Below, piece by piece: positions 15,367 through 52,461 of a DNA stretch of 64,000 nucleotides. The stretch is from Isurus oxyrinchus (Eukaryota): the NCBI GenBank assembly GCA_026770705.1, contig JANJGN010000018.1, positions 78,306,001 through 78,370,000 of the forward strand. Reading direction: 5' to 3'. Positions within the stretch are counted from its first letter, which is position 1. Every line of letters begins with the position of its first letter. The notes under the pieces were generated by a model that saw only the letters and a program-made list of their open reading frames with translations, had not been told where the DNA came from and did not search any database. The translations under genes were made by a program, and so were the position numbers.

Positions 15367-15506
15367 TCAGAGTTGTCCAGTGATATCTCTGAATTTGGTT
15401 CTCAATTTGTTGAGCTGAATTCTGCAACTTCAATCTTCTTTTCTGCTTCTTCTACCTCTTGTTGGAGGTTCAAGTGCTTGATCATGTTTGTATTGACCTG
15501 CTTTAC
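15367..15506 (-). pseudogene. MYH pseudo-exon, C-terminal rod exon
   Basis: Translates (one 1-nt deletion) to KQVNTNMIKHLNLQQEVEEAEKKIEVAE/QLNKLRTKFRDITGQL*. This matches the myosin tail consensus [40 protein letters not shown]. Confidence 0.85.
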
Positions 15507-15755
15507 TTATTAACAAAGAAAAACATTTACTTTCAATTTCAGAATTGTGCTCACTAAATTTGAGCAAGCACTTAGGATCCAAAGTCATGCCACGGGATTA
15601 TTGTGTACAATTTAATATACTTACCCAACATCCTTTACCTGCTTTTCTCATTTGAACTCATTTAAATAAATTTGTTAATCCTGCTAGGACACTAGAGGAA
15701 GGAATGTCCTGGAAATATTATGCATTTGCATGCTGATGTCCCAAGCTGTAATAAA

Positions 15756-18700
15756 GGGTGGAATCATCCCAGATTTGCACTTAGTGTGGTGGGGGGTGGA
15801 TAAAACAACGTTTTACCCACCGGCCACAGTGGCGGCTTTTCACGCTGTATTGTTCCAGTCTTGCCACATTAGTTATGCATTCCCAGGAAACACGCCATTC
15901 CCATGGTAGGCGGGCTGTCATTCGCCCGCCACACCATCACCTCGCCGCTTCATCATGCCAGGCACCATGTTTAAAGTGCAGCCGCGCACACACCTCTCAG
16001 CGCTTCCAGCTCACAATTCCTACAAAGAAGACATGGCCCCAAAAGGCAAGGTGACTGCAGCCCCCAGGATCAATGATGTGTCTCTTGAATGCATTTTGGA
16101 TGCAGTGGAGACTTGCCCTGATGTCCTCTACCCCCGCTGTGATTTGTTCCTGTGCTGACAGTGAGGTCGGCGGGACTCTACCAAGCGAGGATCCAGCAGT
16201 GCAACATCCATTAGATAAGTACGCTGTGTTTCACAGGCCACTACCATACACAAATTATCTCCCCTTGCTTCCACAGGTACATCTGGGAACCTGCAAATGG
16301 AGTCCGTGACCCAGGGCCTCCAATCAAGCCCCGAGGGAAGCTCAGAAGAGAAATCTGTTGAAAACCTCCCTAAAGACCCATCACGTGCTCACCCATGCCC
16401 TCCACCAGCGCAAAGACACACGACTCAGTGGGACATAGCTTTAGAGTAGCCTTGGGATTAAAATCTGGTGAGCACATCGCACTTTCTGATCCACAGCAGG
16501 CAGCAGCAGAGACTTCCCAGGTGTCTGGCACTCGAAGGACTGCTGGAGGCCAGAACGTTGCTGAGTCCTAGTCAGATGACGAGTCTCTGGACTCAGTCAT
16601 GTCACAGTTGTTGGAGCTGAAAAGGCAAGCTGGGGAACAACAGGAAGGGATGTCTGCTGCACTCCACAGATTGCAAGGCATGATGGAGGAGTCCGTCTGC
16701 CTTCAGGCTGAGGTGATTGCGCTGGCATGCCAAAACCCCGAGGTCAACACTGGTAGCATGGCAGCCGTCATGGAGACCTTAGTCCAGGATGTCACTCCTG
16801 CACTGCTGCGCAGGCTGAACTTTGTCGCCGACGACATAGTTGGCCTCCAACAGTCTGTACACAAGAGGAGTGTGGGGCAGCCTGATCTCACTCCAGCTAT
16901 CCCTTCTCCTCAAGGAGTCAGCCTGGGGCCCTTGGGCACCCATAGGGAGGAGGATCAGCAGGTGCACCCCCTGGGGCCATCCCATCCACCCAGGTGACTT
17001 TGGGAATGTCCAGTCCATTCGGATCCCCTCTTCCTTTGACCTCAGCAGCTCCAGCTCCACAGGTTGAGGAGGGTGCCATTGCCACACAGCAGGACCCCGA
17101 AAGCAGGCCAGGGCCCTCCAGGTCTCAACCTTTCAGAGGATGCCCACCAAGGTCATCATAGACAGGGTGTAGCAGTCAGCTGGCTGCCTCCACCTCCACT
17201 TGTCATTGCTGCCAGAATGTTATGCGCAGGCATCACAGAGTTCCGTCATTCTCTCTGTGTGCTCTCAGCTCCTTCAACGTGGGGCTGGCCCCCACCTCTT
17301 CAGCACCTGTGATCAATGACGCTGTGCTCCTGAAGGGGTCAGGTGCAGAAGGCAGACAAAGGATCAGATGCTTTTAAAGTTTCATGGCTGTGTCTCTATG
17401 ATATGACCCTGATCACAGAGTACACGTGAGCTGCCATTGGCCAGACAGGAGTCAGACATTCACGGAGGCCATGTGAAGATATTTGGAGTGTCCTTACTGC
17501 ATGTTGTCATCATCCTCCTGAAATTGAGCGACTATTAGGACCCCCACTGCATCTCCATGACAAGAGCATTATCACAGAGGGTATTCACGCTGCCATAACC
17601 AGACTGGAATGAAAAGTTCATCGACGCAATGGGAGAATCTTATGATGTCTCCTCACTGCATGTCGTCATCTTCCTCCACAAATCTAGCAACTATGAGGGC
17701 CTCCCGAGCATGCCTGCTCGTCTGGACAGTGCAAGGGTCTCATTCACGTCACCATCGCCTTCGAGGATCTCCTCACTCTCATCATCGTAGACACCCTCCT
17801 CATCAGAGGAGACCTCCAGCTTCTCCATCTCGTCCTCAGCCAGCTCCTCTCCCCATTGCAGCACCAATTTGTAAAGGGTGCAGCAGGCGATGACAATGCC
17901 TGACACCCTCTATGGATTATATTGCAGGGCTCCACCAGACCAATCCAGGCACCGGAATCTTATTTTCAGCATCCAGATGGTTTGCTCCACCAAGTTGCGA
18001 GTTGCAGCATGAGCCTCATTATACCTTCATTCTGCTGCAGTCTGATTCCGCTTCACGGGTGTCATCAGCCTCGTCCTCTGCGGGTAGCCCTTTTCCCTGA
18101 GGAGCCTAAACTGCAGCCTCTGTGGACCCTGGAAGGCATCAGGGATCTGTGACCAACTGAGAATGTAGAATTGTGCACACTCCCTAGAAACTGTAGGATG
18201 TGTTTCTGGTGGTCACACACCAACTGCACAATCAGAGAATGGAAGCCATTGTAGTTGATGTAGTAACCGTGCGTTGTGACAGAGATCTGAGCACCACATG
18301 AGTGCAATCGATGGCACCCCACACCTGTGGGAAACCTGAGATCTGGTCAAATCCAATCGCTCTTGCATCCTGGCTTTCCTGGTACCAGGTGAAATGCACA
18401 AAGTCGTTTGCTCTCACAAAGATGGCATCTGTGACCTCATGGATGCATTTGTTGGTGGAGGCTTGTGATATCCCACAGAGGACACCTGTGGAGCCCTGAA
18501 AGGAGCCACTGATGTAAAAATTGACCGTCACTGTCACTTTCACAGCCACTGGCTGTGGGTGTCTTCCATGTCCCCGCGGTGCCAAATCCTGCAGTAGCTG
18601 GCAGATATGAGCGACCAGTTCCCTAGACATGCGCAGTCTCCAGCAACACTGGTACCCGGTTATCTGCAGGAATGAAAAGCGTTGTCCATGGAGCCTGGGT

Positions 18701-19964
18701 CTAGCTAGGCACTGACAAACCACGGCTCGCTGTGGCTCTTCGGAGGTGTATGTGGGACCCCCAGCTGCCCCTTCTTCCAGGTGGTGCTGCTCTTCCCTCT
18801 GCACAACCAGGTGCCTCAGTCACTTACTTCTTCATTGTCTCTGCTCTCTGTAAGCCACGAGTATACAGTTAGTTCACCAGGCTCCATGATCCTGATGTAC
18901 TCCTCCTGCAGGATGAATGAGAGAGATGCGTGGGTTAGCTTGGGTGTACTAAGAACCTCTCTTCATTAAGTTTAAAGGCCCCTTAATGTATCCTGGAGAG
19001 TGCTGGTCACCACTTGGATGGCTGCCCAAAACCCCACCTTCCTCCTCCCCACTTCGCCTGACTGATTAGTGGCAGCTTTGCCCATTGGACTACATGCTGT
19101 GCTCTCAGCTCAGGCGCAAGCATTCTCCTAACACACACTGGAAGGCTGCCCTGTTAGCTTGAACCATTGGGGAGACTGATCCAAGCCGGGATGATGACAT
19201 TGGAAGGGGCTGTGAGCACCTCCACTAGTGACTGCTCCAAGGCAGCTTTAGCAAGGTGATTGTACAATGTGCCCAGTTGTCCAATTGTTCTGCAGTCCAT
19301 TAAATTGCTCATTAGTTTGCAGCCTGTGCCCGAGGGGTGAAAAGCTCTGGAGCACTTGGTGGCACTTTGATACATCTGCGTTGCTCGAGTGGGCAGATAA
19401 GCTAGAGACCCAACTCCAATCATATCAATGTGGCTGCACCTGAAATGTCTCAACTGCAGGGGAATTTCATGTTATACAAGGTTTCCCTAATGCGTGGCCA
19501 CTTGCCTCACTCAGCCCCACACCCTGCACATGCTTGTGTGCGACCTTCAACTGCAGGGCAGCTTCCACCACCACCCCCCCAGAAAGTCGCCCCAACCTTC
19601 AAGTCCAGCAGGCATCCTTTGCTAATGCTCCGCAACTGTGTATTCACCTCTGAGTTCCCCTCAAAGTGCAGCCCGCCAAGTGCACGCCTTTTATATGCTG
19701 TTGTGAAATGCGTAATCGGGGTGGACGATCCAGCGGTGGGGGAAATGAATCTGGCAGTCTAGCCTTATAATGATATGCAGATTTATTACAATAAGGTTCC
19801 CGACATCCGACAGGCAGGAAACACAGCCCACCATCAATGGGCTGAACGGATGATCGCAAACTGGTTTCACAGCATCGTTAAACTGGTTTTTGGCCTTCTT
19901 GCCAAATTGCCCACTCATGCCAACTGAACAAGCCTGATGCCAGTGGGCAGGGACAATTCTGCCC
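15756..19964. mobile_element. Full-length PIF/Harbinger DNA transposon (Myb/SANT gene +, DDE transposase -), decayed
   Basis: TIRs GGGTGGAATCATCCC / revcomp GGGCAGAATTGTCCC, 3-bp TSD AAA. Plus-strand MAPKGK..APRIND..LECILDAVE..DVLYP from 16033. Minus-strand HARBI1-like transposase. Confidence 0.9.
17670..18890 (-). pseudogene. Harbinger (HARBI1-like) transposase, frameshifted
   Basis: ORF 18232..18804 has RLRMSRELV, SGSFQ..GISQ, SGFPQVWGAIDCTHV. Downstream pieces YINYNGFHSLIVQLVCDH and IVIACCTLYKL. Confidence 0.9.
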
Positions 19965-20080
19965 AAAGTTTTCAGATTTAATGCAAGTGAATCTTTAATT
20001 TTACACTTCTGACAGGAAGTCTTGCTCATTGGAATGCGTGCTCAGAGTTTAGTTATGCACTGCCATATTTCTAAATATTT

Positions 20081-21430
20081 AGAACATAGAACATAAGAAA
20101 TAGGAACAGGAGTAGACCATTTGGCCCCTCAAGCCTGATCCGCCATTCAATAAGATCATGGCTGATCTTTTTGTGTTTCGATTTCCACATTCCCATTTAA
20201 CCCCGATAACCTTTGATTCCCTTGCCGAAAAAGAATCTATCTACCTCTGCCTTAAAATTATTCAATGACCCCACCTTCACTGCCTTCTGAGGAAGAGAAT
20301 TCCAAAGTCGCACAATCCTCTGACAGAAAAAATTTCTCTTTGTCTCTGTTCTAAAAGGGCGAACCCTAATTTTGTAACAGTGCCTCCTAGTTCTGGACTC
20401 ACTCACAAGAGGAAACATCCTTTCAATGTCCACCTTGTCAAGGTCGTTCAGGATCTTGTATACTTCAATCAAGTCACCCCTCACTCTTCTAAACGTCAGT
20501 AGAAACAAGCCCAGTCTGTCCAACCTTTCCTCATAGGACAAGCCACTCATTCCAGGTAGCAATCTAGTAAACCTCCTCTGAACCATCCCCAATGCATTTA
20601 CATCCTTCCTTAAATAAGGAGACCAAAACTGCACACACAGTATTCGAAGTGCAGTCTCACCAATGCACTGTATAATTGAAGCATAACGGACATTTCAAGT
20701 CCGTATGGCTCTTCTTCAGGGGTTCTGAGTTGCAGACTCAGAAGAAGGGTCATACAGACTTGAAACATCAACTCTGTTTCTCCATCCACAGATGCTGTCA
20801 GACCTGCTGATTTTTTTCCAGCATTTCTGTTTTTGTTTCAGATTTCCAGCATCTGTACTATTTTGCTGTTGTCCTTACTGTTATGTTCATTCCCTCTTGT
20901 AATAAAGGATAGCATTCCATTAGCCTTCTTAATTACTTGCTGTACCTGCACACTAACTTTTTGTGACGCATGTACTAGAACATCTAGATCCCTCTGCACC
21001 TCAGAATTATGCAGCTGTTCTCCACTTAAGTAATACTCTGCTTTTTTGTTCTTCCTGCCAAAGTGAACAACTTCACATTTTCCTACATTAAACTCCATTT
21101 GCCAGATCTTTGCCCACTCACTCAACCTATCTATATCCATCTGCAACTTCCTCACGTCCTCTTCACAACATACTTTCCTACCTATCTTTGTGTCATCTGA
21201 AAATTTAGGTACTATGTCTTCGCTGCCCTCATCCAATTTATTGATGTAAGCCATAAAAAGTTGAGGCCCTAGCATAGACTGCTGTGGAACGCCACTTGTC
21301 ACATCTTGGCTATCCAAAAAACACCCAATTATGCATACTCTCTGCTTTCTGCCAGCCAGCCAATCTTCTATCCATGCTAATATATTACCCCTACACCATG
21401 TGCTTTTGTTTTCCGTAATAACTTTTGATA
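20081..21430 (-). mobile_element. CR1 3' fragment (RT + tail), interrupted by a Penelope terminus
   Basis: agaacataagaacataagaaatagg tail. ORFs SGVPQQSMLGPQLF..KFSDDTK and QFWSPYLRKD..QRRFTR. Confidence 0.9.
20688..20868. mobile_element. Terminus of a second, older Penelope-like family with inverted hammerhead motif
   Basis: Plus cagaagaagggtcatacagacttgaaacatcaac and inverted ctgaagaagagccatacggacttgaaatgtc, followed by gatgctgtcagacctgctga...ttccagcatctg. Splits CR1 at gcataac|gtccttac. Confidence 0.75.
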
Positions 21431-22792
21431 ACCTTTCTAATTAGTTGTCAGAAAACAGTGCACAGAACCTTCCAGAAATTCCAATACGTTTTCCTGTTGA
21501 GAAGATTTGCTAATCTATATTCCAGATTGTATAAGGCATTGGCGCCCACTAGCTAGAATCTGCCTTCAGTGTGTGAAGTATCTGAATTCTCTGTGTAACA
21601 TACCATTTATTGATTATTACTGTTCCACTACTAATCCATCTAAATGCCAAATCTGTTAAAGTGCATTGAAAGAGAAAATTAAAGCAACTCGAAGGGTGAA
21701 CAAGACAGAGTGAGAGGGTGGTAGGTGGTTAAACAGCTGCAACTTTTAAATTTTCTCTCCCTCCCCAATAAAAACAGAATAGTTTCTTCTACTGGCTCAT
21801 TGCTCATTGCTCAAAACTTCGTTGCAAATAGGGGTCTGCATATAAATCAGGGACCAGGATCAAAAACTGAGATTCAATTCACACATCCTTCACTGTGCCC
21901 ACTGTGATACCTTCCTTTGGCACTTAATCATCTTAACATCTTCTTTTCCAGCACCTCAATCACCCTGAACCAATCCATTCAGGTCTTTTATTCCCTCCCT
22001 CACCTGCTGTGAATCACCTGCCTGGCTACCAGCCAACCTCTAACTCTGCCTTGTTCTTCAAAATGCCTGAGCTCACTCCAATAAGTCTTTACCAATCTTG
22101 ACTTCATCTCAGAAGAAACCCTTGACATCCTGCACCTGAAAGAAACCTAGCTCACAAATGGTAACTCATTACCCTCATCAGCACTCAGAGTACAGCTTCA
22201 GAAGCACAGGAGGTGAAAATTTATCTTTATTTACGATTAACTCATTTTAACCTTAAAATTAAACTGATCTAAATCAAATTTCTTTCCAACATCTCATAAT
22301 GCGGAAACACCATTAATCTCCACAATGCAGGAGAATGCAGATTTAATATTAAAATCAGTTGGATCCCTTAGACTAATTTCTGTTTCAAGACTGGCTGTGT
22401 ACATGGGGATACAGATAGCTGCTAATGCTGACAATGTGTGGATATAAGGGCCCAGATCGTCCCAGCAGGGGCAATTTTCATCAGATTGCGCTGTGTTTGA
22501 AAATTCCCACAATTCAGCGTTGCTGAGCATTTCTCCCAGGGTCTTTCGAGCCCAGCTTTCACAGAAATGTGCAGCGCAAGGTCCATTGGGGAACACAGTT
22601 GGAATGGGGTAGTCAGGGGAATACAGGACACGCCCCCTTTATCCAGCACTAGCTGCCATATGGTAAGTTTAAACGTTTAAACAATTTGAATGTTAGTGAA
22701 TGGATGTTAGTGACTGGGTGAGTGGAGGAATGGGTGATTGAGTGAATAGGTAAGTGGGTGAGGGGTTAAGTGGGTAAGGGGTAGGTGTGTGA

Positions 22793-23151
22793 TAAAAACA
22801 AAAAAACTGCGGATGCTGGAAATCCAAAACAAAAACAGAATTACCTGGAAAAACTCAGCAGGTCTGGCAGCATCGGCGGAGAAGAAAAGAGTTGACGTTT
22901 CGAGTCCTCATGACCCTTGGACAGAACTTGAGTTCGAGTCCAAGAAAGAGTTGAAATATAAGCTGGTTTAAGGTGTGTGTGTGGGGGGCAGAGAGATAGA
23001 GAGAGAGAGAGGTTGGGGGGGGTGGGGGTGTGTGGTTGTGTGGACAAACAAGCAGTAATAGCACTGAGAAAGGAGATATGGCTGTGAAAGCGGGTTTTAG
23101 TAAACACCTTGTACAATAGAACACATAGGTGTTAAAGTTAAAGTTGGTGAT
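22793..23151 (-). mobile_element. Penelope-like element terminal (pLTR) fragment
   Basis: Near-identical to 40274-40600 and to the reverse complement of 32995-33310. Confidence 0.9.
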
Positions 23152-24144
23152 AGTTGGGTCAGCAAGGGTAGTCGAGTTGGTTTGGGGGTGGATAGTCAAG
23201 TAAGGTCGGGCCAAGGGTTTGGTAGTCAAGTCAGAGGATAGTCAGGTTAAGGGAGTGATTTAGTGGGGGCTGAGGGGTGTCAGTTGTATAGTTACCCAGG
23301 TCTTAGACTATTTTCTAAACTGTTTAACATTTCGTGGGAACTACCCAAGTAAGTAATGTGGAACTGCCTGAATTCTCTGACTCTGACTCAGGGTCGGAGA
23401 CATTCGTGGAGGGTCCCAGGGAGCAAGGGAATTGCCCATCGGAAGTTGAAACTTCCCAGGCAATTCCCATGGAGATCTGTGCATCAGGACTTCCACAGGA
23501 TCCCAATACACATCTTCAGTCATACGTCAGGTCTCCAACAATTCACAGACCGGAAGATTTAGCCCGGGGTTTTAGTAGAAATCAAATGTAGATAGAACGT
23601 ATTTCTTAGTTGGCTCCTTACACTGGGTAAATAGACCGCCTAGTCTAACCTAATAGAGACAGATACAATGAGGCATTCAAAAGAAATTGGATAGGCACTT
23701 GAAGAGAACAAATTGCAGGACTATGGGGAAAGGACAGGGATTGGAACTAGATGAGTTGCTCTTGCAGAGAGCCAACATAGGTATGACAGACTGAGTGGCT
23801 TCCTTCTATGCTGTAACCATTCTATGAATCTATGGTGTGACTTGGAATCATAATTTGGCACAGGAAGAGGCCATTCAGTTTAGGCTAGCTCTCTGAAAGA
23901 GCTATCCAACAGTCCCTTTCCCCTGCCCTTTTCCCAGATCCATAGTGATTTTTATTTTTCAAATATATATCCAGTTGCCTTTTAAAAGTTATTCAGCTTA
24001 AGGTTTTGAAGGATATAGAGTATGGTTCTTTATGCATGACTTCTTCAGAATTAGCCATCTAAGAGAGGATTAAGAATTAGAAGTTATTTTGGTGATGCAC
24101 CAATATACATGCACAATGGATGGATTATAAAAATATTTTTAAAA

Positions 24145-27100
24145 AATGGAATATGAGAATAAACTAGCCAGAAATATAAAAACAGATTGTAAGAGCTTTT
24201 ATAAGGATATAAAATGGAAGGGAGAAGCTAAAGTAAACGTTGGTCCCTTAGAAGCAGAGACAGGAGAAATGATCGTGGGGAATGAGGAAATGGCAGAGGC
24301 ATTGAACAAATGTTTTGTGTCTTCACAGTAGAAAATGCTAGTTCCACACCAAAATAGACAATAACCTAGGGGCTAAAAAGAGTGAGGAAATGAAGAAAAT
24401 TAATATCCGCAGAGATAAAGCATTGGAGAAACTTATGGGACTAAAATCCAACAAACCCTACGCCTCAGGATACTAAAAGAGATAACTGCAGAGATAGTGA
24501 ATATGCTAGCTATGATTTTCCAAAATTCCTTAGATTCACAAATGATACCACTAGATTGAAAGTTGGCAAATGTTACGTCACTTTTCAAGAAAGGAGGGAG
24601 AGAGAAAGCAGTGAGCTACAGGCTAGTTAGCCTACCCTCAGTTGTTGGGAAAATGCTGGAGTCTATTATTAAGGAAGTCTTAACAATGCATTTAGAAAAG
24701 CATAATAAGATCAGAACAAATCAACATGGTTTTACTAAAAGGAAATTCTGTTTGACAAATTGTTGGATCCTGGTTACCAGTTTGTTGGGTCCTATGGATT
24801 CAGGTTGCATGCTTGTTTTGAGATGGCCAAGGTGGTACAATAGACAGAGTTGACCAGCAGACAATTCTTAGGTGGTATTTATTTACAAAGGTTATTCAGC
24901 AGCTACACTTATGTGCTTTCAACTCAAAACTTGTCTCCATACTTCTCCTTACTAACTCAGGCTACTGACTACAGAGGTAGCCCGCACTACTCCTCTACTG
25001 GTTACATAAGATTGTGTAATCTTCCTTTATAGCATCCTTCTTAAAGGTATACTACATAGAACCATAATTACCAAATCCCTCCTCCTTTACTTAGAAACAT
25101 ATTTTATGTTTATAAGTACAATTTTCTCCAAATAGCAAATCACTTACACAGATAAGTAATTTACAAAGTCAGTCTTTCTGGGGGTTTCCTTATGCGTGCA
25201 GAAAATCTCAGCTCTACAACTTCAGATGTTTTGTCAGGAACCTCCTTTCCTGGAGTTGTCTGAACATCAGGTGGGTACCTGCAAATCTGCTTCTTCAACT
25301 CTTCCGTATACAGCAGACACATCTGACACATCTGGACTAGGTTGAGTTCTCTTAGCAGGAAACGTTGACTCGGTCATGAACAGTGGTAGAATAATTTCTT
25401 GGGGATTTGTTTCTTTCTTCCTTAGATGATCCACATGTCTCCATATGATTCAGCCTTCCACCTTCACGTGGTAAGATAGAGGTCCAGTCACTGCACTTAT
25501 TTCACCCGGTGTCCACTTTGGTCCTTCTCCAAAGTTCTTCACATTAACTGTCTCTCCCACAGCAAACTTCCTGTCATGACTATGCCAGTTGTGTCTAGTT
25601 TTCTGATTTCCCTAACTCCTTTCCACCTTCCACTCTAAATTCAGCATTATTAAGCTCAATCTTGTCCTGAGGCGGCATTTCATTAATAATTCCGCAGGTG
25701 TGATACCTGTTGTTGTATGAGGGGTTGTCCTATAGTGTAAAAGAAAGCAAGCTAGCATGATTGCTATGGAATCTCAAGTTAATTTCTTCATGCCAGCTTT
25801 GAATTTTTGAACCACCCTATTGGCCAGTCCATTTGAGGAAGGGTGGCAGGTGACGTTTTTACATAAGTGATACCGTTGAGGCTGATAAATTGCTGAAATT
25901 CAGAACTCATAAATGTCATGCCATTATCAAAAATGACCACTTCTGGTAGTCCATGAAAGGCAAAACTTTGACATAGCTTCTCAATTGTAGCAGAAGACTT
26001 TGGTGACTTCACCTCATATGTATCCATCCATTTTTAGTGGGCATCAACAATAAGCAGAAAACTGTTCCCATGAAAGTTCCCACATAGTCAATGTGTAATT
26101 GTACCCATGCCCTTCCTGGCCACTCCCAAGGGTGTAACAGAGCTGTTGAAGGTAACTTTTGCAATTGCTGACACTGCACACAATTCTTCACTAAGCTCCC
26201 TATTTCTCCATCCATCCTAGGCCACCATAGATAGCTGCGTGCTATGGTCTTCATTCAGGAAATTCCTGGTTGGGCACTATGTAGTTCAATCAACAATGGC
26301 TTTCTTCCTTTTGAAGGAACAATCGCTCATGCTCCCCACAATAAGTTACCATCCTGACTGGTTATTTCATATGTTCTGTTAAAGTGCGGTTTCATTTCAT
26401 CAGATACAGGCTCTTGTGATCAACCATGAAGCACTTGTTCACATACTTTAGATAAGACTGGGTCTCGACTTGTGCAGTCTATGATCTGTCTAGCACATAC
26501 CAGAGATGAATCTAAGAAATTCAACAACAAAACTAGTTCTTGTGGAACTGGGACATCCTCATCTTTTCCTCATAAGGGCAAATGACTCAATTCATCAGCG
26601 TTTGCAATTTGATTTCCAGGGCTATGGATGAAAGTATACTTGTATGCTGCCAGGATCAATGCCCATTGTTGTATTCTTGCTGAGGCTACGGGTGGTATAG
26701 CCTTGTCCTCGCTGAACAATCCCAGCAATGGCTTGTGGTCTGAAACGATAGTAAAATGACAGCCATGTACATACTGGTGAAATTTCTTGATACCAAAGAT
26801 GACTGACAGGCCCTCTTTTTCTATCTATGGGAATTCCTTTTACTCTGTGGTGAGCATTCTTGACACATACCCTATAGGCTGTTCCATGCCATCGTCCATC
26901 CAATGGGAGAGCACAGCTCTCACTCCATAGGGGATGTGTCACATGCCAACATCAGTTCTTTCCTCTGGTCATAGTGTTGGGCGAATGCAACAATTTTTTA
27001 CCCTTTATGAAAGCTTCTTTCTATGGTGTATCCCAAGAGCAACACTGGCTCTTCTTGAATAGATAATGCAGGGGGGCCAGTTCTGTAGACAAATTGGGAA

Positions 27101-29832
27101 AGAAATGTCCATAATAATTGATCATTCCTAGGAATGATTTGAGCTTGGAGGTGTTCTTTGGCGCAAGTGCCTCTCTTATGGCTCTCACATATTTCTCAGC
27201 TGAATGGAGGCCCTGTGAATATACCTGGTGACCCAAATAGATGACCTCCCTCACTTGAAACATGCACTCTTCTTTTTTAAACACACTCCAGCCTGCAAGA
27301 AATGTTTTAGGACTTCTAAGTTCACCAAATGCTCCTTTTCAGTGAGTCCTATCAGCAGGACATCACCTAAATAAACTATAACATGGCGCAATCCCTGCAA
27401 TAAACTCTCCACTGTTCTTTGGAAGATGGCACAAGCTGAGGAGAAGCCGAAAGGCAAACGGGTAAGTGGTACAACCCTTTGTGTGTATTAATTGTGACAA
27501 ATTCCAGGAGGCATTCTCTAACACTAAATTTTGATAAGCATGACTCATATCAAGCTCCTTGTAGGTGGTTCCACCTGCCAGCTTAGCATATAGGTCTTCA
27601 ATTTTTGATATGGGGTGCCTGTCCAGCTTAGCCACTTTATTAACTGTCAATTTATAGTCTCCACATCCGCTTTAGTTGGGTTTAAGTACGGGGACTATTG
27701 GTGCTGCCCATTCTGAGAACTGCACAGGCTGTATAATACCCTGTTTCTCTAATCTGTCCAGTTCAGTGTTGAACTTTTCCCACATTGCATAAGGTACTGG
27801 TCTTGCATTCATGAATCAGAGTCTTGCCTCTGGATCCACATGAATTCTTGCTTGCAGCCCTTGGATCTTCCCAAGTTTGTCCTTGAAGACTGAGGCATAT
27901 TTTTATAGTAGGTCTGGTAATCCACTTGCTCTCGGCTGGAAAATTTCAGCCCATTCTAACTTAATCTCCTTTAGCCAGTTTTGTCCAAGGAAACTTGGCC
28001 TCTTGCCTGCTACTACCATCAAGGGTAGTTTTACTGATTGGCTTCTGTAATGGACAGTAACTCCGCTAATGCCTTTGATTTGGATGTCTTCACCAGTGTA
28101 TGTTTTTAATTTGGCATCAGTTTCTTCCAAATTTAATTTATATTCACCATAATTCAGATAATTGAAGGTGTGTTCACCAATCACTGTAGTGAAAGCTCCT
28201 GTGTCCACTTCCCTTCTAATAGGTCTGCCATTTACCTTCACTGTTACATATATTGGTTCTGTCTTTCCAAGCTTCAAATTAAATAGTGAATAAATATCTG
28301 AATTTGTTGCTTCAGACTCTCCTACACTGTAGATCTCCTGGATTTTTTTCTTTTATTCGAAAGTCGGCCTGATTCTTTCCTTCCACTGTCTCATTAGGTG
28401 CCTGTTCGATGATAATAAAAACATTTGATTTTTTTAAACTGCCAGTCATTACAAGTTTGCCTGTTTCCACTTCTGTTGCAATTATTCCTTATTTTCGCAG
28501 CTAAGTCATTTCTTTTTATTAGTCTGCCTGTGGTGGCTGTTTTCTGCTTCTCGGCAGAGTCTTGCATTTTTGCACCCTTTTTGGCTGGGGCTTCCCACCT
28601 AACATGGAGGATGGTGTCATTTTTCACTCCTTGTATGGCTTTCAATCCCTTACTGTGCTTTCATGGCCAGTGCTATCTTTAGCGCCTTCTTAAAATCCAA
28701 ATTTATTTCAGACAGTAATCTCTTCTGAATCATGTCTTCATTCACACCACACACTAAACAATTTCTGAGTATGTCATTTAAAGATATGCCAAACTCACAA
28801 TGTTCTGTTAACTGTTTCAAACTTGCCACATAACAAGCAACTGTCTCCCTCAGGATTCTATTTCTTGAGTTAAATTTGGAACATCGCGTCATTGCTGAGG
28901 GCTTTGGCTGGTAATAACTCTTTTTGAGGTCCACCAAGTCATCAAAACCTTTTGAATCGGGGGCATTGGGTGCTGTCAAACTTCAAGTCAAGCCATAGGC
29001 TTTACTCTCATATGTAGATAAGAAGATCGCTCGCCTCTTCTCTTCCCCTGTAATGTTGTTTGCTTGGAAAAAGAACATGAGCCATTCAACATAATGTGAG
29101 CAATCACCTGTGGCTGGGTGAAAGAATCAATTCTTCCAAATTGCGGCATTCTGTGAGGGGATTGCTTCAATGATTAGGATAGAAATTCTACTTACAATTA
29201 CCATGCGAGGTATAGCCTGATTTTATTTCTCTTGATCTCTTTCATTAACTTGTTTTGTTCTTGAAGCTAATTTATTGTATCTTCATTTTTTCCTTGTTGC
29301 CAGTTTGTTGGGACTTATGGATCCAGGTTGCACGCTTGTTTTGGGATGGACGAGTTGGTATGATAGACAGAGTTAACCAGCAGACCGTTCTTAGATGGAA
29401 CACATTCTGTTTATTCACAAACATACTCAGCAGCTACACTTGTGTGCTTCCAACTCAAACCCTGTCTCCATACTTCTCCTTACTAACTCAGACTACTGAC
29501 TACAGAGGTAGCATGTACTACTCCTCTATTGGTTACATAGGATCATGTGAACTTCTTTTATAACATCCTTCTTAAAGGCATACTACAAAATTACATAAAA
29601 CCATAATTACCACACAAATGTATTTGTTTTTTGAGGCTGAAGGAGAACCAGTAGATATTTGATACCTGGGTTTCCAAAAGGCATTCAGTGAGGTGCCACA
29701 CAAAAGGTTAATAGGCAAGATAAGGGCTCATGGAGTTGGGGATCGTATATTAGCATGGATAGAGGATTGGTTAATGGATAGCAGGCTCAATGGATCGTGT
29801 GGTCTACTCCTGCTCCTATTTCTTATGTTCTT
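24145..29832 (+). mobile_element. CR1 ORF2 fragment split by the Gypsy element
   Basis: YENKLARNIKTDCKSFYK and ANVTSLFKKG..NQHGF..CLTN before 24761. Continues after 29619 to a tttcttatgttc tail. Confidence 0.85.
24761..29614 (-). mobile_element. Complete Gypsy (Mag-like) LTR retrotransposon, decayed
   Basis: LTRs 24761-25075 and 29306-29614. 5-bp TSD CAAAT (24756-24760, 29615-29619). PPT revcomp of tccctcctccttt (~25076); PBS TGGCAACAAG. Gag, protease (EVDTGA), RT and integrase fragments. Confidence 0.95.
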
Positions 29833-30890: not shown

Positions 30891-31453
30891 CAAGCATTAT
30901 AATTCACAATATTAATCTACCGCCTCTGAATAACTCAATTTTAAATGGCTGAGAATGACTTTCAATACATACACAAATCCATTTTCTAGTTAGGTGGGGG
31001 TACAATAGTCAGTTCCTTAGTAAATTAGAAAAAAAATCATTCAAAGCCTTTCAAAATGGACCTATTAGTGCCCTTACACCCAATAGCAGCTTAATATTTA
31101 GAACCACCACACCCCCAACCTGCCAACCCACCTTACATAAGGCCGACAAATGAATGCAATTAGTGGAAACTCGCACAGATTATTAATTCACCCAGCAGAC
31201 ATGGTATGTTTCTATTGCAATATTTTTGAACTAATGTAAAAGATCGTGGAAACTCAAGTTGTGCTGAATGTATCTTGTCCTTAACGTTCTGCAATCTGTT
31301 GTGCTAGTTAAGCTAATATTGGGGAAAGTGTGCTGAAAAAGCCAGCATAATTGAGCAGAATCTCCAGACTGTAATATTTGTTTCAGTATTGCAACTGTCA
31401 TTACAGGGGTACTCTCTTTAAGAAAAAATGCTCAGCAAACTAATTTTGTTTGG

Positions 31454-33317: not shown

Positions 33318-33911
33318 TAATTTTGTTTGGGCTGAGCAGTAGCAACACCATTTTGTGTGCATTCAAACTGAAGAAGCTCTCCTCACAATGACGCATGCAG
33401 AGTTCTGTTTGAATTCAACACGTTCGTTGTCTCCATGATTATTCCTGCATTTTCTCACGTGCTGAATGCAGAAGCATTCAAGCAGAATTTTACCCATGAA
33501 TGACAGAAAGATCACTTCCAAATTAAGCTCCCTCTGCTGGACCATATGGAACTGCAAAATACTGTATCAAAGATGAACAGATTCAGAAGTTGGATGACGT
33601 TAACACACAACCTATTCAATTGTGATCTTTTGATTTGCTGCTGAGAGGTGGACAATGCTTAAGGCAATGTTTACTGTCCATTTACAGCTTTCCCCAAGGC
33701 ATTAAAAACCAATCACATTATGTGAGATTGGAGTCAGATGTAATTCGGCTGGATAATGGTGACAGGCTCCCTACCCGAAGGACATTAGTTAACCAGTTGG
33801 ATTTTTACACTACTGACAGCTTTTGTTGCAATTTCATCTACTCGTAATCCACAAATTCCCATGTTTATTGAATTAAATTTCCTGTCTTGCCATGCTGGAT
33901 TAGAACTCATG

Positions 33912-36460: not shown

Positions 36461-36479
36461 AGTGATAACAATTCCACTG

Positions 36480-38188: not shown

Positions 38189-38297
38189 TAAAAACAAAAA
38201 ACTGCGGATGCTGGAAATCCAAAACAAAAATAGAATTACCTGGAAAAACTCAGCAGGTCCGGCAGCATCGGCGGAGAAGAAAAGAGTTGACGTTTCA
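38189..38297 (-). mobile_element. Short Penelope terminal fragment
   Basis: taaaaacaaaaaactgcggatgctggaaatcc...gagttgacgtttc, the same as the other copies. Confidence 0.85.
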
Positions 38298-39613
38298 AGT
38301 AATTCAGTTTGCAGAGGGGCTGGTGTGAGGTCAGGAAATCTGGAAGAATGGGTTTCCCGAATGTCCCGTAGAATTTTACTGCAGGATTCCTGCCTCAGAC
38401 AGCCAGACTGAGGGGGATTGGTAGATTCGCCGACAGTTTAAATTTAGCTCTTCTCACCTCCTTTCAGCTGTCAGTTTTCCTGAGACCCGGGAAGCCTGAT
38501 GGCCTGTAGTTAAAAATAGAAACACTGTTAAAATGAAGATGTGCAGCCTAATTATAATATTTAAATGACCATCTCCTTCCCCTTAGTGGATTGGTCACCT
38601 GTCCCATCATAGAGCCATAGATATTTGAAGCACAGAAGGATGCCATCATGTCACTGCTGGTTTCTTGAAAGAGTAATTGTGCTCATTCCCAACACCCCCA
38701 CTTTCTGCCTGTAACCCTCTAAGTTTTTCATTCTTAAGCATCTGTCTAAGCCCCATTTAAAAATATTTATGGAATCAGATTGCATAAATCACCTTTTCAG
38801 GTCGTGCGATCCAGAGCCTGATGATTATGTGCCATTTTTTCGAAGAACAGGCAAGAATTCATATTATCTATGCAATACAGACGTATAGCACATCAACAGG
38901 CCTTGTCAAATGTGTTCAGAATTTTGAAATTGCAGATCTAATTTTCAGATGGAGAATGCTCTGTGAATAGGCATATTCAAATAAGTTGCTTACTTTCTTG
39001 CAAAATATCGTGAAAATATGTCTCTGTGCTTTATTCAGGGTCAACAGAATCAGGAGTAACATCCATGAGAGATCCCGATGCATCTTAGAAGTGTAAAAGT
39101 CCACGTTCATATAATCAGTGACTGACTTGAGGACCCCCACTGGATGCAGTAATACATCAATGGGCAACAATAACTTAAGTTGGCAATATCATGTTATGCC
39201 TCTGGTCAGACTGGCTGAAAATTTTTGAAAGCATGAAGACCAAGACAGACTGAACACAGGCATTTCTGTTATTGCTGGGAAATCTGAGCCACGAGTACAT
39301 AGAAAATAGGGTCAGAAGAAGGTGCTCGGAAGGAAAAATACACATACCAGTCCTTCCAATATTTTGAAATTAACAAGTAGGGGATGGCTGAGAACTTCAG
39401 CCGCAGATTATCACTGGTTTACAGGAAAAGGATGGGATAGCATCATACAAATTTGATGTCTGCACACACAGAGGGGAATTGTCCCAATTTGCACTGTGTG
39501 GTAGTGGGCGTGAAAAATGACATTTAACCTGTTGGCCGCAATGGTAGGTTTTCATGCCACAATGTCCTCTTCCCTCCTCATAAGTTTTGCAGTCACGGGA
39601 AACACCGGCAGCT

Positions 39614-39975: not shown

Positions 39976-40273
39976 AAAAGCGTCTGATTTGCCCACCACA
40001 CATTTGCCTCATCACTTCCTCACTCTGAGTGCTATATTTAAACTGCAGCTGCAAGATCAGTTCTCAATGCTTGAAGCCCAGGATTGCTTCAGTGAAGACA
40101 TGGCCCCAAAAGTCAAGAAGAGTGCAGCCTCCCGATTCAGTGACACATCCCTGGGACGCCTTCTGGCTGCAGGAGGCCCATCAGTCTCACCATTCTGGCT
40201 TGGGTGGTAATGGCAGAGATGGTCAGTGCCAACACTGCACACAAGAGGTCAGTCATCCAGTGCAGAAAGGGGG

Positions 40274-41790
40274 TAAAAACAAAAAAACTGCAAATGCTGG
40301 AAATCCAAAACAAAAACAGAATTACCTGGAAAAACTCAGCAGGTCTGGCAGCATCGGCGGAGAAGAAAAGAGTTGACGTTTCGAGTCTTCATGACCCTTC
40401 GACAGAACTTGAGTTCGAATCCAAGAAAGAGTTGAAATATAAGCTGGTTTAAGGTGTGTGTGTGGGGGGCGGAGAGAGAGAGAGAGAGACAGAGGTGCTT
40501 GTGTAGACAAACAAGCAGTGATAGAAGCAGATCATCAAAAGATGTCAGCGACAATGGTACAATAGAACACATAGGTGTTAAAGTTAAAGTTGGTGATATT
40601 ATCTAAACGAATGTGCTAATTAAGAATGGATGGAAGGGCACTCAAGGTATAGCTCTAGTGGGGTTGTTTTTTTTATATAATGGAAATAGGTGGGAAAAGG
40701 ATAATCTTTATAATTTATTGGAAAAAAAAGGAAGGGGGAAACAGAAAGGGGGTGGGGATGGGGGAGGGAGCTCACGACCTAAAGTTGTTGAATTCAATAT
40801 TCAGTCCGGAAGGCTGTAAGGTGCCTAGTCGGAAGATGAGGTGTTGTTCCTCCAGTTTGCGTTGGGCTTCACTGGAACAATGCAGCAAGCCAAGGACAGA
40901 CATGTGGGCAAGAGAGCAGGGTGGAGTGTTAAAATGGCAAGCGACAGGGAGGTTTGGGTCATTCTTGCGGACAGACCGCAGGTGTTCTGCAAAGCGGTCG
41001 CCCAGTTTATGTTTGGTCTCTCCAATGTAGAGGAGACCACATTGGGAGCAACGAATGTAGTAGACTAAGTTGGGGGAAATGCAAGTGAAATGCTGCTTCA
41101 CTTGAAAGGAGTGTTTGGGCCCTTGGATGGTGAGGAGAGAGGAAGTGAAGGGGCAGGTGTTACATCTTTTGCGTGGGCATGGGGTGGTGCCATAGGAGGC
41201 GTTTGAGGAGTAGGGGGTTATGGAGGAGTGGACCAGGGTGTCCCAGAGGGAGCGAACCCTACGGAATGCCGATAAGGGGGGTGAAGGGAAGATGTGTTTG
41301 GTGGTGGTATCATGCTGGAGTTGGCGGAAATGGCGGAGGATGATCCTTTGAATGCGGAGGCTGGTGGGGTGATAAGTGAGGACAAGGGACCCTATCATGT
41401 TTCTGGGAGGGAGGAGAAGGCGTGAGGGCGGATGCGCGGGAGATGGTCCGGACACGGTTGAGGGCCCTGTCAACGACCGTGGTTGGAAAACCTCGGTTAA
41501 GGAAGAAGGAGGACATGTCAGAGGAACTGTTTTTGAAGGTAGCATCATCGGAACAGATGTGACGGAGGCGAAGGAACTGAGAGAATGAGATGGAGTCCTT
41601 ACAGGAAGCGGGGTGTGAGGAACTGTAGTCGAGGTAGCTGTGGGAGTCGGTGGGTTTGTAATGGATATTGGTGGACAGTCTATCGCCAGAGATTGAGACA
41701 GAGAGGTCAAGGAAGGGAAGGGAAGTGTCAGAGATGGACCACGTGAAAATGATGGAGGGGTGGAGATTGGAAGCAAAATTAATAAATTTC
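40274..41790 (-). mobile_element. Young Penelope-like retroelement, 5'-truncated (RT C-terminus + GIY-YIG + pLTR)
   Basis: ORFs 41310..41792 (FINFASNLHPSIIFT..LPFLDL..YKPTDSHSYL) and 40772..41776 (LVLTYHP..YIGETKHKLGDRFAEH) join with one frameshift. Inserted in the Harbinger Myb exon. Confidence 0.93.
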
Positions 41791-43644
41791 ACGTGAAAAT
41801 GAGGGGATGGATGATCTCATCTGTGCCGTCAGGGTAAGGAAACCACCTTATCACTCTAAACTCACACACTCATAAGCTCATCACACATTCACTGGCATCT
41901 CACTCATTGCCAGCTCAAGGAATGTCATCACTCACTCTCCCACATACCCTCACATCTCCAGCTGGCCTCATCTCCTCTGGGGATCCCCTCCTCATCCCGT
42001 CCATGGCTCCACTCAGCACACACGCACACCTGGCATCCTTCCCATTTTGGCCTGGTATGCCCCTTGCTCACACTCTCTCCACCCATCTCTATGCAGGACA
42101 AGATTGCGCACAATCAACAGGACAGGTCTAGGACTGAGGGTGGAGTGCTGGACATCAAGGTCCTCACTCCATTCGAGAGTCACACGTTGGAAATGGCTGG
42201 AGAAGATGTGGCCCATTCCTGCGGTGATGGTGAGGCCGGCGGCAAGCACCCATGTGAGGATCCTGAACCAGATCATGCCTCTGTCAATGCTACTCTGAGT
42301 CCACTGTTCTGTGTAACACAGCAGCCAAGCACTAATAATCTCCACTTCCTCTTCTAGGCACATCTGCCACATCACCCTCAAGCACCCTTGATCCCAACTT
42401 CAGCAAGAGCACCGTGGATGAGGACCCAGAGGGCAGCACTGTTGAAGACCACACCCTCCGCCAGCGCAGTAACATACGCCTCAGTGGGACGTAGACGTAG
42501 AGCAGCCTTGGGATCACAATCTGGTGAGCACAGTACACAACCTGTTCCTCAGCAGACAGAGGCAGAGAGATCCAAGGTCACAGGCACTTGGAGGACTGTT
42601 GGAGGCAAGGAATCTGCTGAGTTCGAGTCAGATGATGAGACTCTAGGCTCAGTCCTCAATCTGTTGCTGGAGCTGCAAAGCTCGGGAATATCAGGAAGGG
42701 ATGTCCGCTGCACACCTAAGGTTGTAAGGGACAATGGAGGAGTCCATCTGCCTTCAGCCTGAGGTGGTAGCACTGGCATGCCAATGCACCAAGGCCAACA
42801 CTAGCAGGATGGTGGCCGCCAGCGAGACCTTGGTCCAGGACATTGATCCTGCACTGTTGTACAGGCTTAACTCCATCACTGATGCCCATAGTTGGCCTCC
42901 AACAGTGTCAACAAAAGAGGGCTGTGGGGCAGCTCAACCTCACACCAGCTTCCCCTTCTTGTCAAGGGGCTGTCGGGCACCTATAGGGAGGAGGACCAGC
43001 AGCTCGACACCCCGGGGCCGTCCACCCAGGTGACTCCATGAATGTCCAGCCGATCCCAATCCACTCGTCCTTTGACCCCAGCAGCTCCAGCTCCACAGGC
43101 CAAGGAGAGTGCAGCTGGCACATAGTAGGACACCTAAAGCAGGCTGGAGCCCTCCAGGTCTCAGCCTTCCAGAGGACACCTGCCAAGGTCATCACAGACA
43201 ACTGGGTAGAGCAGTCAGCAGGCTGCCTCCACCTCCACTGTGGGAAGCACCTTGACGTAGCGACTGGTTAAGAAGATGTAGTTGCAGTTTGGGCATATCA
43301 TTTGTACATAAAGTTCACTGTTGTTAATAAACTCCCAAGAATGTCCCTTGCCTATGGCTCCTTATTATGATGAGCAGTGTTAGTGTCACTCAGATGTGAA
43401 ACCTTGGTTCCCGCACAAGATAAAGACAGTGTCTCAGTCCAGGGCCTCTTCCCTGTGCAGTGCGTAACCTTCAGACCAAAATGATGGTCTGGCTTCACAC
43501 TTACTGGACACATCAGTGATGTCTGCACCTCGATGGTGCTTGTCATTGCTGCCAGAATGTTGTAGGCAGGCATCACAGAGTTCCATCATTCTCTGTGTGC
43601 TCTCAGCGCCTTTGAGATGAGGCTGTCCCCCATCTCTTCAGCAT

Positions 43645-44007
43645 GTTTTTTTTAATTCATTCATTCATGGGATATGGGTGCTGCTGGCTAGGCAAGCATT
43701 TATTGCCCATCCCAAATTGCCTTGTTCAGGGAGCATTTAAGAGTCAATCACATTGTTGTGACTGTGGGAGTCACATGTAGGCCAGGCCAGACAAGAACAG
43801 CAGATTTCCTTCCCTAAAGGGCATTAGTATTTACAACAACCAACAATAGTTTCATGGGCATCATTAGACTTTTAAATCTAGATTTTTATTGTACTCAAAT
43901 TTCATCATCTGCCATGGTGGGAATCTAACCTGGGTCCCCAGAGCATTACCCTGGGTCTCTGGATTACTAGCCCAGTGACAATACCACTACGTCATTGTCT
44001 CCTCCCA
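43645..44007 (-). mobile_element. tRNA-derived SINE (same family as 39614-39975)
   Basis: Reverse complement of the 39614 SINE: attcattcattcatgggat...tactagcccagtgacaataccactac. Confidence 0.75.
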
Positions 44008-46644
44008 TGATGGTCCAGTGATGGTGTAGTCCTGAAGGGAACAGATGCTGAAGGCTGACAAAGGATCAGCTGCATTTAAAATTTCTTGGCTGCGGCTCCA
44101 TGATATGAGACTGATCACAGAGCGCATGCGAGCTACCCTCAGCCAGACTGGAGTCAGACATTTACAGAGGCAATGTAAAGATCTATGGAGTGTCCTCACT
44201 GCATGTCGTCGTCATCCTCCTGGAATCTTGTGACTATTAGGGCCTCTTCTTCATCTCCAAGACTTGAGCTTGAGCACTGAGGGTATGTGCACTGCCATCA
44301 GCCACACAGGAGTCAAATATTTACAGATGCAGGGTGAGGGTGTCAGGACTGTCCGCACTGCAACTCGTCATCATCCTCCATGAATCTTGTGGCGTTGAGG
44401 GCCTCCCGATCACGCCTGCCTCATCTGGCCAGTGCTACGGCCTCATCATTAGCATCCTCACCTTCAAGGACCTCACCACCTTCATCCTCTTCAATGTCCC
44501 CTTCATTGGAGGAGAGATGCAGTTTTCCCATCTCTTCCTCTGCCAGATCCTACCTCCATTGTAGCACCAGATTGTGCAGTGTGCAACAAGCTACAATGAT
44601 GTATGACACCCTCGGTGGACTGTATTGCAGTGCTCCACCGCACCTCTCGAGACATCGGAGCCTCATTTCCTATTGTTTGCTCCACCAAAGTCCAGGTTAC
44701 AGTATGAGCCTCATTATATGGTCTCTCTGCTGCACCCTGAGGCCGCCACATGGGTGTCATCAGCTACATCATCTGTGGGTAGCCCTTGTCCCTGAGGAGC
44801 CATCTCTGCAGCCTCTCTGGAACCTGGAAGATGTCAGGGATCTGAGACCTGCTAAGGATGCAGGAGTCATGTACGCTCCGTGGGTAACGTGCACAGCCTG
44901 TAGGATGCGTTTGTGGTGGTTGCACTCCAGCTGACTATCTAGCATACGGAAGCCTTTGCGGTTGATGTAATTGACTGCTTGTTGCCATGGAGATCTAAGC
45001 ACCACATGAATGCAGTCAATGTCACCCTGCACCTGTGGAAAACCAGAGATCGCTGCAAATCCCAGCACTCTTGCTTTGTGGTTTTCCTGACCCTGGACGA
45101 AATGCACAAAATTCTGTGTCTTCATGAGGATGGTGTCCGTGACCTCCGGAATACACTTGTGCGTGTAGGCTTGTGAAATCTCACACAGGTCACCTGTGGA
45201 GCCCCAGAAGGAGCCACTGACATAAAATTGAGTTCCGTGATCACTTTCATGGACACTGCAGTGGATGCCCTCCATGTGCCCACGGTGCCAAATACTGCAG
45301 CAGGTGGCATACATGACCGACCAGTGTGTAGTGCGCTGACTGGCTGTCCAAAGCCCCACCCACCTCAGCCCCACTCCACTTGACCCATTGACAGCAGCTT
45401 TGCCCACTTGACCACATGCTGTGCTTTCAGCTCAGGTGCAGGCATTCTCCTAACCCGCCCTGCAAGGCTGCATTGTTAGCTTGAACATGAGGGATACTGG
45501 TCCAAACCTTAATAGCCCAGAAGGAAAAAAACAGTTCAGACCAGTATTCTTATTTCCCAGTTTTGACTGTTTTTTCCTCTGGAAAAGACATTGCAAGGAT
45601 CTCTGAGCACCTCCACCAGTGACTGTTCCATGCAAGGCAATTCTACAACTTGCCCAGTTGTCCAATTGTTCTGCTGCCCCCTAAAACGCAACTTGCAGTC
45701 TGTGCTCAAGGGGGGAAAAGTTCTGGAGTATTTGGTGGCACATTTATGGTGTTGCATTGCTTGAGTTAGCAGAAAAGCTTCAGAGGCCCAAATCCAAGTA
45801 TGTCAATGGATCTCCAGTTGAACAGTCTCCGCTGCGGAAGAATGCTGACTTTTGACAAGCTTTTCCAACTGTGTGTCCACTTCCCTCACCATCCACTGCC
45901 AAACCACCACCTCCCCCCTCCCCCCCACCACCCCCCACCACCACCACCACCACCACCCTCCCCCCACTCTCGGCATATACTTATATACTTCCTTTAGGCT
46001 CAGCTGCCTTGCCCCCACCGCCCCCAACCCCCTCCTCCCCGGTCCTACCCACACTGGAGCCCTTGCCCCTGCACTGCATTGAAAGCCAGCGGGGAAAAAG
46101 GAACTAGCCTGTGCTCCCCGCGAATTCGCAATGCCTCTTCCTTGATGTCCTATGGGCGATCCTCAGGAGGGCGCTGCGAGGTTGTGTGCGCTCACCCCCA
46201 AGTTCCCCTTGGAGTTCAGCTCGCCTTTTAAAGGCAGTCGTAAATCACACCGTTCTGAAGTCACACCAAAGTGGGAGGTATATTTGACATGGGGGGGTTG
46301 ACTCCAGGCATGCAGGAATAATGATGAGATGCAAATGCATTAAAATTAAGCTCCCAATGTTGGATGACAGGAAGTGCGGCCCCCCATTGACCCATTGACA
46401 GGTGAAGCGGACTATTGCAAACTGGTTTCACAACGACGTAAAATTGATTTTTGGCCTTCTCGCCATATTGTCCACTCAGGCCCATCATGAGGCCCGCTGC
46501 CAATAAGAGTTAAAAATTCTGGCCATAGGGCGGAATTGTCCTAGGAATCTTCATAAAGTCAAGTTTTGCTTTAATGAAATCAGCAGTAAGTTTTAGACAA
46601 ACTGTACAATTTAACCAGAAACAAACACGGTATACTTAAACAAT

Positions 46645-51097: not shown

Positions 51098-51155
51098 CAG
51101 GTGCTGAGATAGGTCTGGAGATGCACTTCAATTCTCACCAGTGAGGGTATCCAGA

Positions 51156-51215
51156 ATGATAGACGTTTGCTACAGTTTTCTCGTAAGCTACGTGTACAGT
51201 TCTGCAGCAACCTGT
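51156..51215 (-). pseudogene. MYH pseudo-exon, motor domain
   Basis: TG/LQNCTRSLRE/TVANVYH (two small frameshifts, the first in the Trp codon) vs GWLQKNKDPLNETVVGLYQ. Confidence 0.65.
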
Positions 51216-52319
51216 AAAGTACAATGCAAGCAGCTCACAAGTTGTCCAATCTAAAATACTGTGTGTGGTCATGCAGAAATATTTAAAGATATTGTGCATT
51301 CAAAGGAAATGTAATGTTGCTCTTACTAATGTTATCACAGGCAGATGCATCTACAGCAGGTAGATTGGTGAGGAGTAGGTCAATGAAGATTTTCTCTCAT
51401 GTTGGTTCTCTCACCATCTGTCACAGACGTGAATGAATAATGTATTACTGGGTCCTGCTCACATCTGACAAAATTGCTTATTATTCCAGGATTATCCGGA
51501 ACTGCAAAGATAGCCACTGGCTTCCTTTTTCTACTGCAAACTGTCTTCTTACACCCTTGACCCCACCCTCACCTCCAACAGGTATGAGGAGCTCACAAAG
51601 TCACAAAGATCAGCTGTCTCTATCCCTTAACTCTGTTCCCCTAGCCCATCAGGCCAACGCTCCTCAAACGAAATCACTGCTCTTTCCTTTAACTTGTATC
51701 TTTCTCTAGTTTCTCTCGATCCGTCCTACCCTCTCTGAGCTCACCTTGTCCATGAGGCCCACCTGATATTCTCTTAGCTTCCCTTCCTGGCTTTCTTGCT
51801 AGCTGATGCTGTCAAAGGTTCTCTTTCCTTGGCACTGTCCACCTCTCCTTCAAACCTGCTATTATCACCCCTCTCCTCAAAAAAAAACAACCTTTCCACT
51901 CCTGTGCTGTCGCCTCCCAAATCTGTGCCCATCTTTCCCGGAACTGTGTTTGAATCCCTCCAATCAAGTTTCCAAATCTGCCAAAACTTGTTATCAAATT
52001 CACAAATGACATTCTGCGTGATTCCAAACTGCCACAGGCGGCATTATCACACAGATGACCAGGCCTCAGTTTCTGTCTCCTACCAAGAACTACCCACATT
52101 TCTTTACAGAAGTGGGTGCTCCAGATGCCCAAAGAGGAAAACCCCTGCTTGTTGCACATTTCCATTAAAAAAAAATGGCACTGCCCTTTTTCCAATTGCT
52201 GCCATTTCTTCTTCTGTGTCCATCAAAAATGAATTAGCCCCCTCAAATAGCTGCTACAGCTTGTTGCTACTAACCTCCTCCCTCTAACATGTCAGGCTCA
52301 ACCCAAATCAGGAACTCAC

Positions 52320-52461
52320 TATGAATATGTAATGAACCACATCTCAGGATACCAAACGAGAACAGGCCATTGCTGGAATCTTCCTCCAGGGCTGTGTTCC
52401 TGGTGTCCTCATATTTTGGATAGAAAGTTCTAGTGATATCTGGATACAAATTTCAATTTTC
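52320..52461 (-). pseudogene. MYH pseudo-exon leading to switch II (DIAGFE)
   Basis: Bounded by cag| and |gtgagt, 142 nt. NTALEEDSSNGLFSFGIL vs INATLETKQPRQYFIGVL. Confidence 0.6.

Follow-up and report, generated by a model that had tools for sequence, protein, structure and literature searches.

Does the DNA between 15.4 and 52.5 kb of this shark locus hold a whole dead sarcomeric myosin heavy chain (MYH) gene, or a fragment of one? In the 64,000-nucleotide stretch analysed here (the window), the initial annotation had described ten myosin-like pieces spread over 37 kb between transposons. The short peptides quoted for them are present in the minus-strand translations at or near the reported sites, and all ten pieces do sit in DNA without repeats inside the window. 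Real myosins for comparison were collected from teleost contigs, followed by 120 proteins (mostly teleost fast types), 150 cluster representatives and 120 relatives of a lungfish protein. A FastTree analysis of 28 rows, in which the relic itself was not placed, comprised the groups fast, MYH6/7-like, MYH15 (two squamates) and MYH7B; the pooled profile held 28 sequences in five sets, with no MYH16 and no shark fast or MYH6/7 type among the references. Intron positions came from teleost genomic loci, except for ten of the 38, most of these within the head's first third, which were entered as background numbers. The exon scan employed 38 exon models with splice bonuses and a codon-level neutral-decay alignment.

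In this codon-level, splice-aware scan a 134-nt segment at 15506–15373 of the minus strand scored 66 bits as a decayed last long rod exon of a sarcomeric MYH (residues 1889–1933 of reference P0401), which we take to be exon 39 by human MYH7 numbering. Across the whole minus strand, the other 37 exon models stayed at or below 26 bits, and none of 1410 control bins attained the score of the relic. The segment 15506–15380 was picked out alike by tblastn, by a frameshift-aware BLOSUM62 aligner and by the codon-level neutral-decay aligner, with tblastn E values against sturgeon slow myosin of 0.001 (BLOSUM62) and 3e-5 (PAM70). Jawed-vertebrate fast, slow, 7B and squamate MYH15 rows gave 51–68 bits; lamprey, nematode, an unnamed distant row and marsupial MYH15 gave 29–35 bits, MYH9/10/11 not being scored by name. 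Judged by sequence, the relic is a C-terminal rod segment of a sarcomeric class II MYH, closer to these than to the other class II rows scored. Pfam returned no myosin family for 18 single-frame translations, which were drawn from six regions and took in seven of the ten claimed sites; as the real relic exon was missed too, this negative carries no information. A PDB sequence search with one frame of the relic exon returned no myosin.

The exon carries a single 1-nt frameshift, visible in the alignment to the family profile as two bases (15419–15418) in place of a full codon, and no in-frame stops. Eighteen of its 44 codons differ from every residue found at more than 5% in the family profile; 16 of these 18 are one base off a family residue, a decay pattern that looks neutral. 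Homology sets in with the exon's first codon, an intron position in 20 junctions of teleost genomic loci, without continuation into the preceding exon. A pyrimidine tract and a weak acceptor (15530–15507, top 2–6% of positions) lie directly upstream; the exon's own acceptor and donor are both degenerate. With its frameshift lesion and retained exon–intron structure, the relic reads as a dead, unprocessed sarcomeric MYH remnant, which would make no myosin and has no evident function. The description of an old, dead and non-processed remnant is thus borne out, given the intron-position start and a frameshift common to a second species (see below). Truncated retrocopies typically look like 3′-end-only fragments in LINE-rich DNA, and the relic resembles them in this regard. 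Still, homology that starts exactly at an intron position, preceded by a pyrimidine tract, its failure to extend into the previous exon, and a candidate last exon 520 nt away behind its own acceptor would be most surprising for a 5′-truncated processed (retro) copy of a myosin mRNA, an origin to which we give hardly any credence.

That probable true last coding exon lies downstream at 14870–14833 (minus strand), outside the coordinates of the initial annotation. Here, an AG at 14853–14852 is followed by phase-0 S-A-E-E-D and by a stop one base out of frame. The acceptor scores 8.1 bits (top 0.009% of positions) and is the strongest in the single-copy DNA around the relic. Across four sequences, 2 of 156 strong acceptors (this one included) are followed by two Glu within the first five codons, and acidic tails end many MYH15, MYH7B and fast proteins of the reference set. 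The assignment as last MYH coding exon, recognised post hoc, is probable. Consequently, what had been called a clear terminal rod exon (15506–15367) keeps its homology but is probably second-last, a likelier last exon starting at 14851. A very weak polyadenylation-like hexamer with one mismatch (14723–14718, minus strand) is seen in the sequence about 110 nt past the candidate stop.

On the other side, a consensus donor at 15624–15619 (top 0.06% of positions) is found 118 nt upstream of the relic acceptor, at the end of a segment (15690–15619, minus strand) that may weakly represent a remnant of the exon before the relic. An equal or better match to that exon precedes 50 of 767 other strong donors, and coeval intact exons scored as low as this piece in none of 150 simulations at a decay of 0.3 and in 2 of 150 at 0.4. 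From the proposed penultimate exon with a gtaagt donor, the donor holds up and the exon stays a weak candidate.

The nine other pieces score 6–14 bits as myosin exons, i.e. chance level, leaving one real piece among the ten. Under strict settings, 16–375 equal matches are expected by chance per 64-kb strand for these sites. The per-bin p values span 0.09–0.77 (strict), 0.07–0.84 (loose) and 0.045–0.84 (very loose). Fisher combination gave p = 0.21–0.23, and 0.12–0.21 against AT-rich unique DNA only; the combined values of 0.12–0.23 were obtained even though the nine sites had been chosen post hoc as the best-looking. Only the 15.4-kb piece aligns significantly. Among the nine, the 36.8-kb piece does best, being equalled by 3 of 223 AT-rich bins when the settings are very loose, and its match requires 15 indels and 4 stops in 89 steps, compared to one and none in 42 for the relic. 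This purine-rich stretch is the top match for seven different protein windows and for reversed sequence as well. An intron-less joint match across 36.9–36.5 kb (41 bits, 19 indels) was rejected as composition. The switch-II piece gave p = 0.04–0.18 across subfamily profiles, and none of the nine pieces was rescued by subfamily-specific profiles. Apart from the relic, all myosin-profile matches of at least 24 bits lie in mobile-element DNA or are equalled by control strands. With five profiles tried, the minus strand yielded no head exon (switch II, relay, converter) above 25 bits, where 40–170 would be expected; the head, neck and mid-rod exons thought to be kept across 37 kb are not recovered.

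The minus strand allows chains of 12–33 collinear “exons”. Permutations of exon order equalled or beat the minus-strand chain in 19–54 of 60 trials (44–79 of 100 in a second run), plus-strand chains outscored it in 14 of 14 settings, and chains with reversed sequence were as good. Several exons jointly above chance in gene order over 37 kb are not observed, and the “exact gene order” previously reported carries no weight as evidence, permuted, plus-strand and reversed chains being equally good. The window shows clearly how AT- and purine-rich spacer DNA can by chance look like a persuasive series of “collinear exons” for a coiled-coil protein.

Could the missing exons have decayed beyond recognition? 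Simulated decay of 0.15–0.25 left 28–29 of 29 real exons at 30 bits or more, and a decay of 0.45 left 18 of 29; these simulations start from a teleost gene near the profile, with exon-splitting transposon insertions outside the model. In the window, the pooled profile found none of the 37 other exons at 30 bits or more. For real exons with a simulated decay of 0.2–0.3, none of 150 runs each gave a score as low as those of the nine claimed pieces. At a decay of 0.2, nematode head exons kept 40–95 bits (nematode rod exons 13–31), and a divergent paralog is thus no explanation for the missing head. Coeval upstream exons are absent from the window, and the remainder of the gene is not detectable there. 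A whole gene over 15.4–52.5 kb, with upstream exons past detection and one exon kept by chance, constraint or gene conversion, would agree with the position of the pieces in unique spacers, with the drop of most simulated exons to about 20–27 bits at a decay of 0.6, and with the 36.8-kb match. Conversely, at a decay of 0.5 the observed score of the relic was reached in 0 of 150 runs and scores as low as those of the other pieces in 0–4 of 150. The permutations hold no collinearity signal, the many lesions and the reversed match weigh against the 36.8-kb piece, and the claimed interval contains only about 10 kb of AT-rich unique DNA. Moreover, there is no sign of constraint, as the relic exon contains one listed difference from a second organism (see below) where about two are expected. 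We consider such a whole-gene fossil highly improbable.

By self-similarity, the interval 15781–52461 is a transposon stack with short unique spacers, made up of CR1-like LINEs and LTR/Gypsy-like, GIY-YIG Penelope-like and Harbinger-like elements. It contains eight of the nine rejected pieces and no detectable myosin exon. Sequence that recurs inside the window makes up about 47% of it. Pfam searches on mobile-element frames (16 window ORFs, of which seven gave a domain, and P0122) identified RVT_1, aspartyl protease, GIY-YIG and endonuclease domains in the stack. Two LTR-retrotransposon-like copies (9195–13326 and 25701–29587) are 72–76% identical and have an aspartyl protease domain. Young GIY-YIG Penelope-like elements at 31453–33313 and 40271–41816 are 92–99% identical, one with an inverted duplication, and short 3′ pieces of this type occur at 23–162 and 22791–23152. 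The GC-rich elements at 16398–19510 and 42454–45889, with a similar block at 33316–35866 (two are 72–80% identical), are presumably Harbinger-like by resemblance; Pfam gave no match for the frames tried, and an inverted-repeat scan of 15600–20200 revealed no clear element ends. Two matches inside repeated mobile DNA were discarded, one with the fast profile at 32445–32305 (30 bits) and one on the plus strand at 38257–38298 (32–34 bits). The latter is an element end mimicking a myosin rod peptide, with copies at 22862–22903, 40343–40384, 31690–31649 and 33246–33205, and its score of up to 34 bits marks the ceiling of chance matches in the window. The stack had been seen as growing inside a freed gene. 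No myosin sequence was detected on its far side, and this view is without evidence because upstream exons are unsupported across the 37 kb.

The relic itself resides in a single-copy island (14310–15780) with high-copy repeats on both sides, defined by a contig depth of ~39 compared to 10^3–10^5 in the flanks (run X2); the same pattern was observed in run X11. The latter run, from another study, is organism B. One contig of organism B spans the 1261 nt of 14519–15779 without a gap, differs at 19 positions and stops at the same repeat edge. It therefore carries the same frameshift, which must predate the species split. Among the 17 of 19 A/B differences that were listed, one falls in the relic exon, where B has the Thr codon of intact shark MYH7B. 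A GTGA-type tetranucleotide repeat is located at the island edge (14468–14518), where contigs break. Run X2 may derive from the source sample, and run X5 does not reach the relic exon. A search with 52250–60000 listed no RNA data set, and run X18, which may be RNA, has no contig on the island; neither result counts as evidence on expression. The A/B divergence over the island amounts to 1.5%, and the simulations place the decay of the relic at ~0.2–0.3 substitutions per site. Assuming constant rates and a profile close to the ancestor, inactivation would be very roughly 25–40 times older than the A/B split.

In summary, we estimate a probability of about 0.6 that the relic, ~1 kb long and unprocessed, represents the 3′ stump of an MYH gene lost long ago and not a 37-kb fossil. 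A sarcomeric MYH gene would have been inactivated long before the two species split, followed by neutral decay of ~0.2–0.3 substitutions per site. Deletion or rearrangement may have taken ~95% of the coding sequence, the other exons probably being deleted or moved away, and transposons would afterwards have boxed in the remaining stump. A small genomic duplication fits the same data: the island may be a short copy of the 3′-terminal part of an MYH gene that is still intact elsewhere (fast cluster, MYH6/7 or MYH7B). This copy would have been inserted long ago, without a whole gene ever having existed here. The presence of only one to three adjacent exons with intron-like spacing is in line with this explanation, as are the best profile scores (fast 60, MYH6/7-like 59.5 and shark MYH7B 59.3 bits, followed by MYH15 and bony MYH7B with 53 bits each), which belong to types with intact genes in sharks according to the available text of PMC6558913. 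Against it, no second copy of the island at 88% likeness or more exists in runs X2 and X11, so any duplication must be ancient, and no donor locus was identified. We regard an inserted duplicate as rather unlikely, albeit worth keeping in mind.

If the relic is a stump, it could mark where an entire sarcomeric paralog once stood that sharks lost early on, either MYH15 or an unnamed copy from a genome duplication; this is an unlikely though far from negligible prospect. An origin from MYH15 is possible and not favoured by sequence, the grouping relying on 44 decayed codons with 53 bits for MYH15 vs 59–60 for fast, slow and shark MYH7B. Human MYH15 sits among Ig-superfamily genes. Two MYH15 rows appear at the bottom of the list of 120 relatives, which consequently cannot establish absence of MYH15 in sharks; all eight chondrichthyan rows in that list are named myosin-7-like. 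Six shark and ray sequences called “myosin-7-like” in NCBI/UniRef (P0314, P0317, P0322, P0334, P0344 and P0348) cluster with MYH7B, not MYH7, i.e. 6 of 6 chondrichthyan rows tested by FastTree. In white shark, MYH7B is located on a record of 150,295,438 bp and the orthologue of the neighbouring Ig gene on another of 118,536,060 bp; assuming conserved synteny, the window is probably not the MYH7B locus. Rfam gave no match in the window, intronic miR-499 included, which is uninformative if the host intron is gone. As it stands, the relic is an unannotated, very old and ordinary pseudogene scrap. If synteny were to identify the site of MYH15 or another lost paralog, the stump would give direct evidence of which sarcomeric myosins the first jawed vertebrates possessed, a repertoire about which little is known from cartilaginous fish. 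It would also pin down the place and approximate time at which cartilaginous fish lost that paralog.

The neighbouring Ig V-C1 receptor gene is arguably of more interest than the myosin relic. It is intact, with five exons on the minus strand (59467–54806): leader (~59467–59387), single-exon V (58251–57874), C1 (~57590–57285), transmembrane segment (~56273–56183) and a cytoplasmic exon (54982–54806) with a Y-V-N-V motif. Relatives were found in white shark (twice), basking shark and elephant shark. Over the V domain, identity is 94% to white shark LOC121290359, 88% to basking shark (LOC144691966) and 47–48% to elephant shark (XP_007894085), from which the window likely belongs to a lamniform shark; the best PDB matches of this domain are CD28/CTLA4. 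CDR3 and tyrosine motifs resemble those of chondrichthyan CD28H (PMC11599192, supplement 4), which in the accessible part of that paper has a single V domain only, in contrast to V plus C1 here. The accessions of the relatives do not appear in the portions of the PMC11599192 supplements at hand, nor in the literature searched. The gene may belong with the non-rearranging VJ-C1 genes of the PRARP/UrIg kind; PRARP is named in the available text of PMC10751288.

Within a partial coverage of the literature, including excerpts of PMC6402096, PMC6558913, PMC12227049, PMC10751288, PMC11599192, PMC4177693 and PMC11050549, no shark MYH pseudogene was reported. Among intact sarcomeric types, the relic scores best with fast skeletal MYH and MYH6/7 and has Glu-Glu at columns 1907–1908 as in fast types, in a comparison with teleost, sturgeon, bird and rodent references only and no shark sequence. 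Shark MYH7B (“myosin-7-like”, e.g. XP_041060234) gives 59–64 bits and is an intact gene, whereas the relic is broken. The text seen of PMC6402096 describes MYH15 as a sarcomeric gene of ancient origin that lies in neither the fast nor the cardiac cluster and is reportedly missing from teleosts. The relic shares with it a Glu at column 1914 but scores lower, against squamate and marsupial references only. Human MYH16 is likewise a dead sarcomeric class II heavy chain with a frameshift and retained intron structure; yet, in the same excerpts, its 42 predicted exons span 68 kb with a single recent lesion, in contrast to the one to three exons and heavy decay of the shark relic. Mouse MYH16, removed by genomic deletion according to that portion of PMC6402096, is nearer to the relic in mechanism than the human gene.
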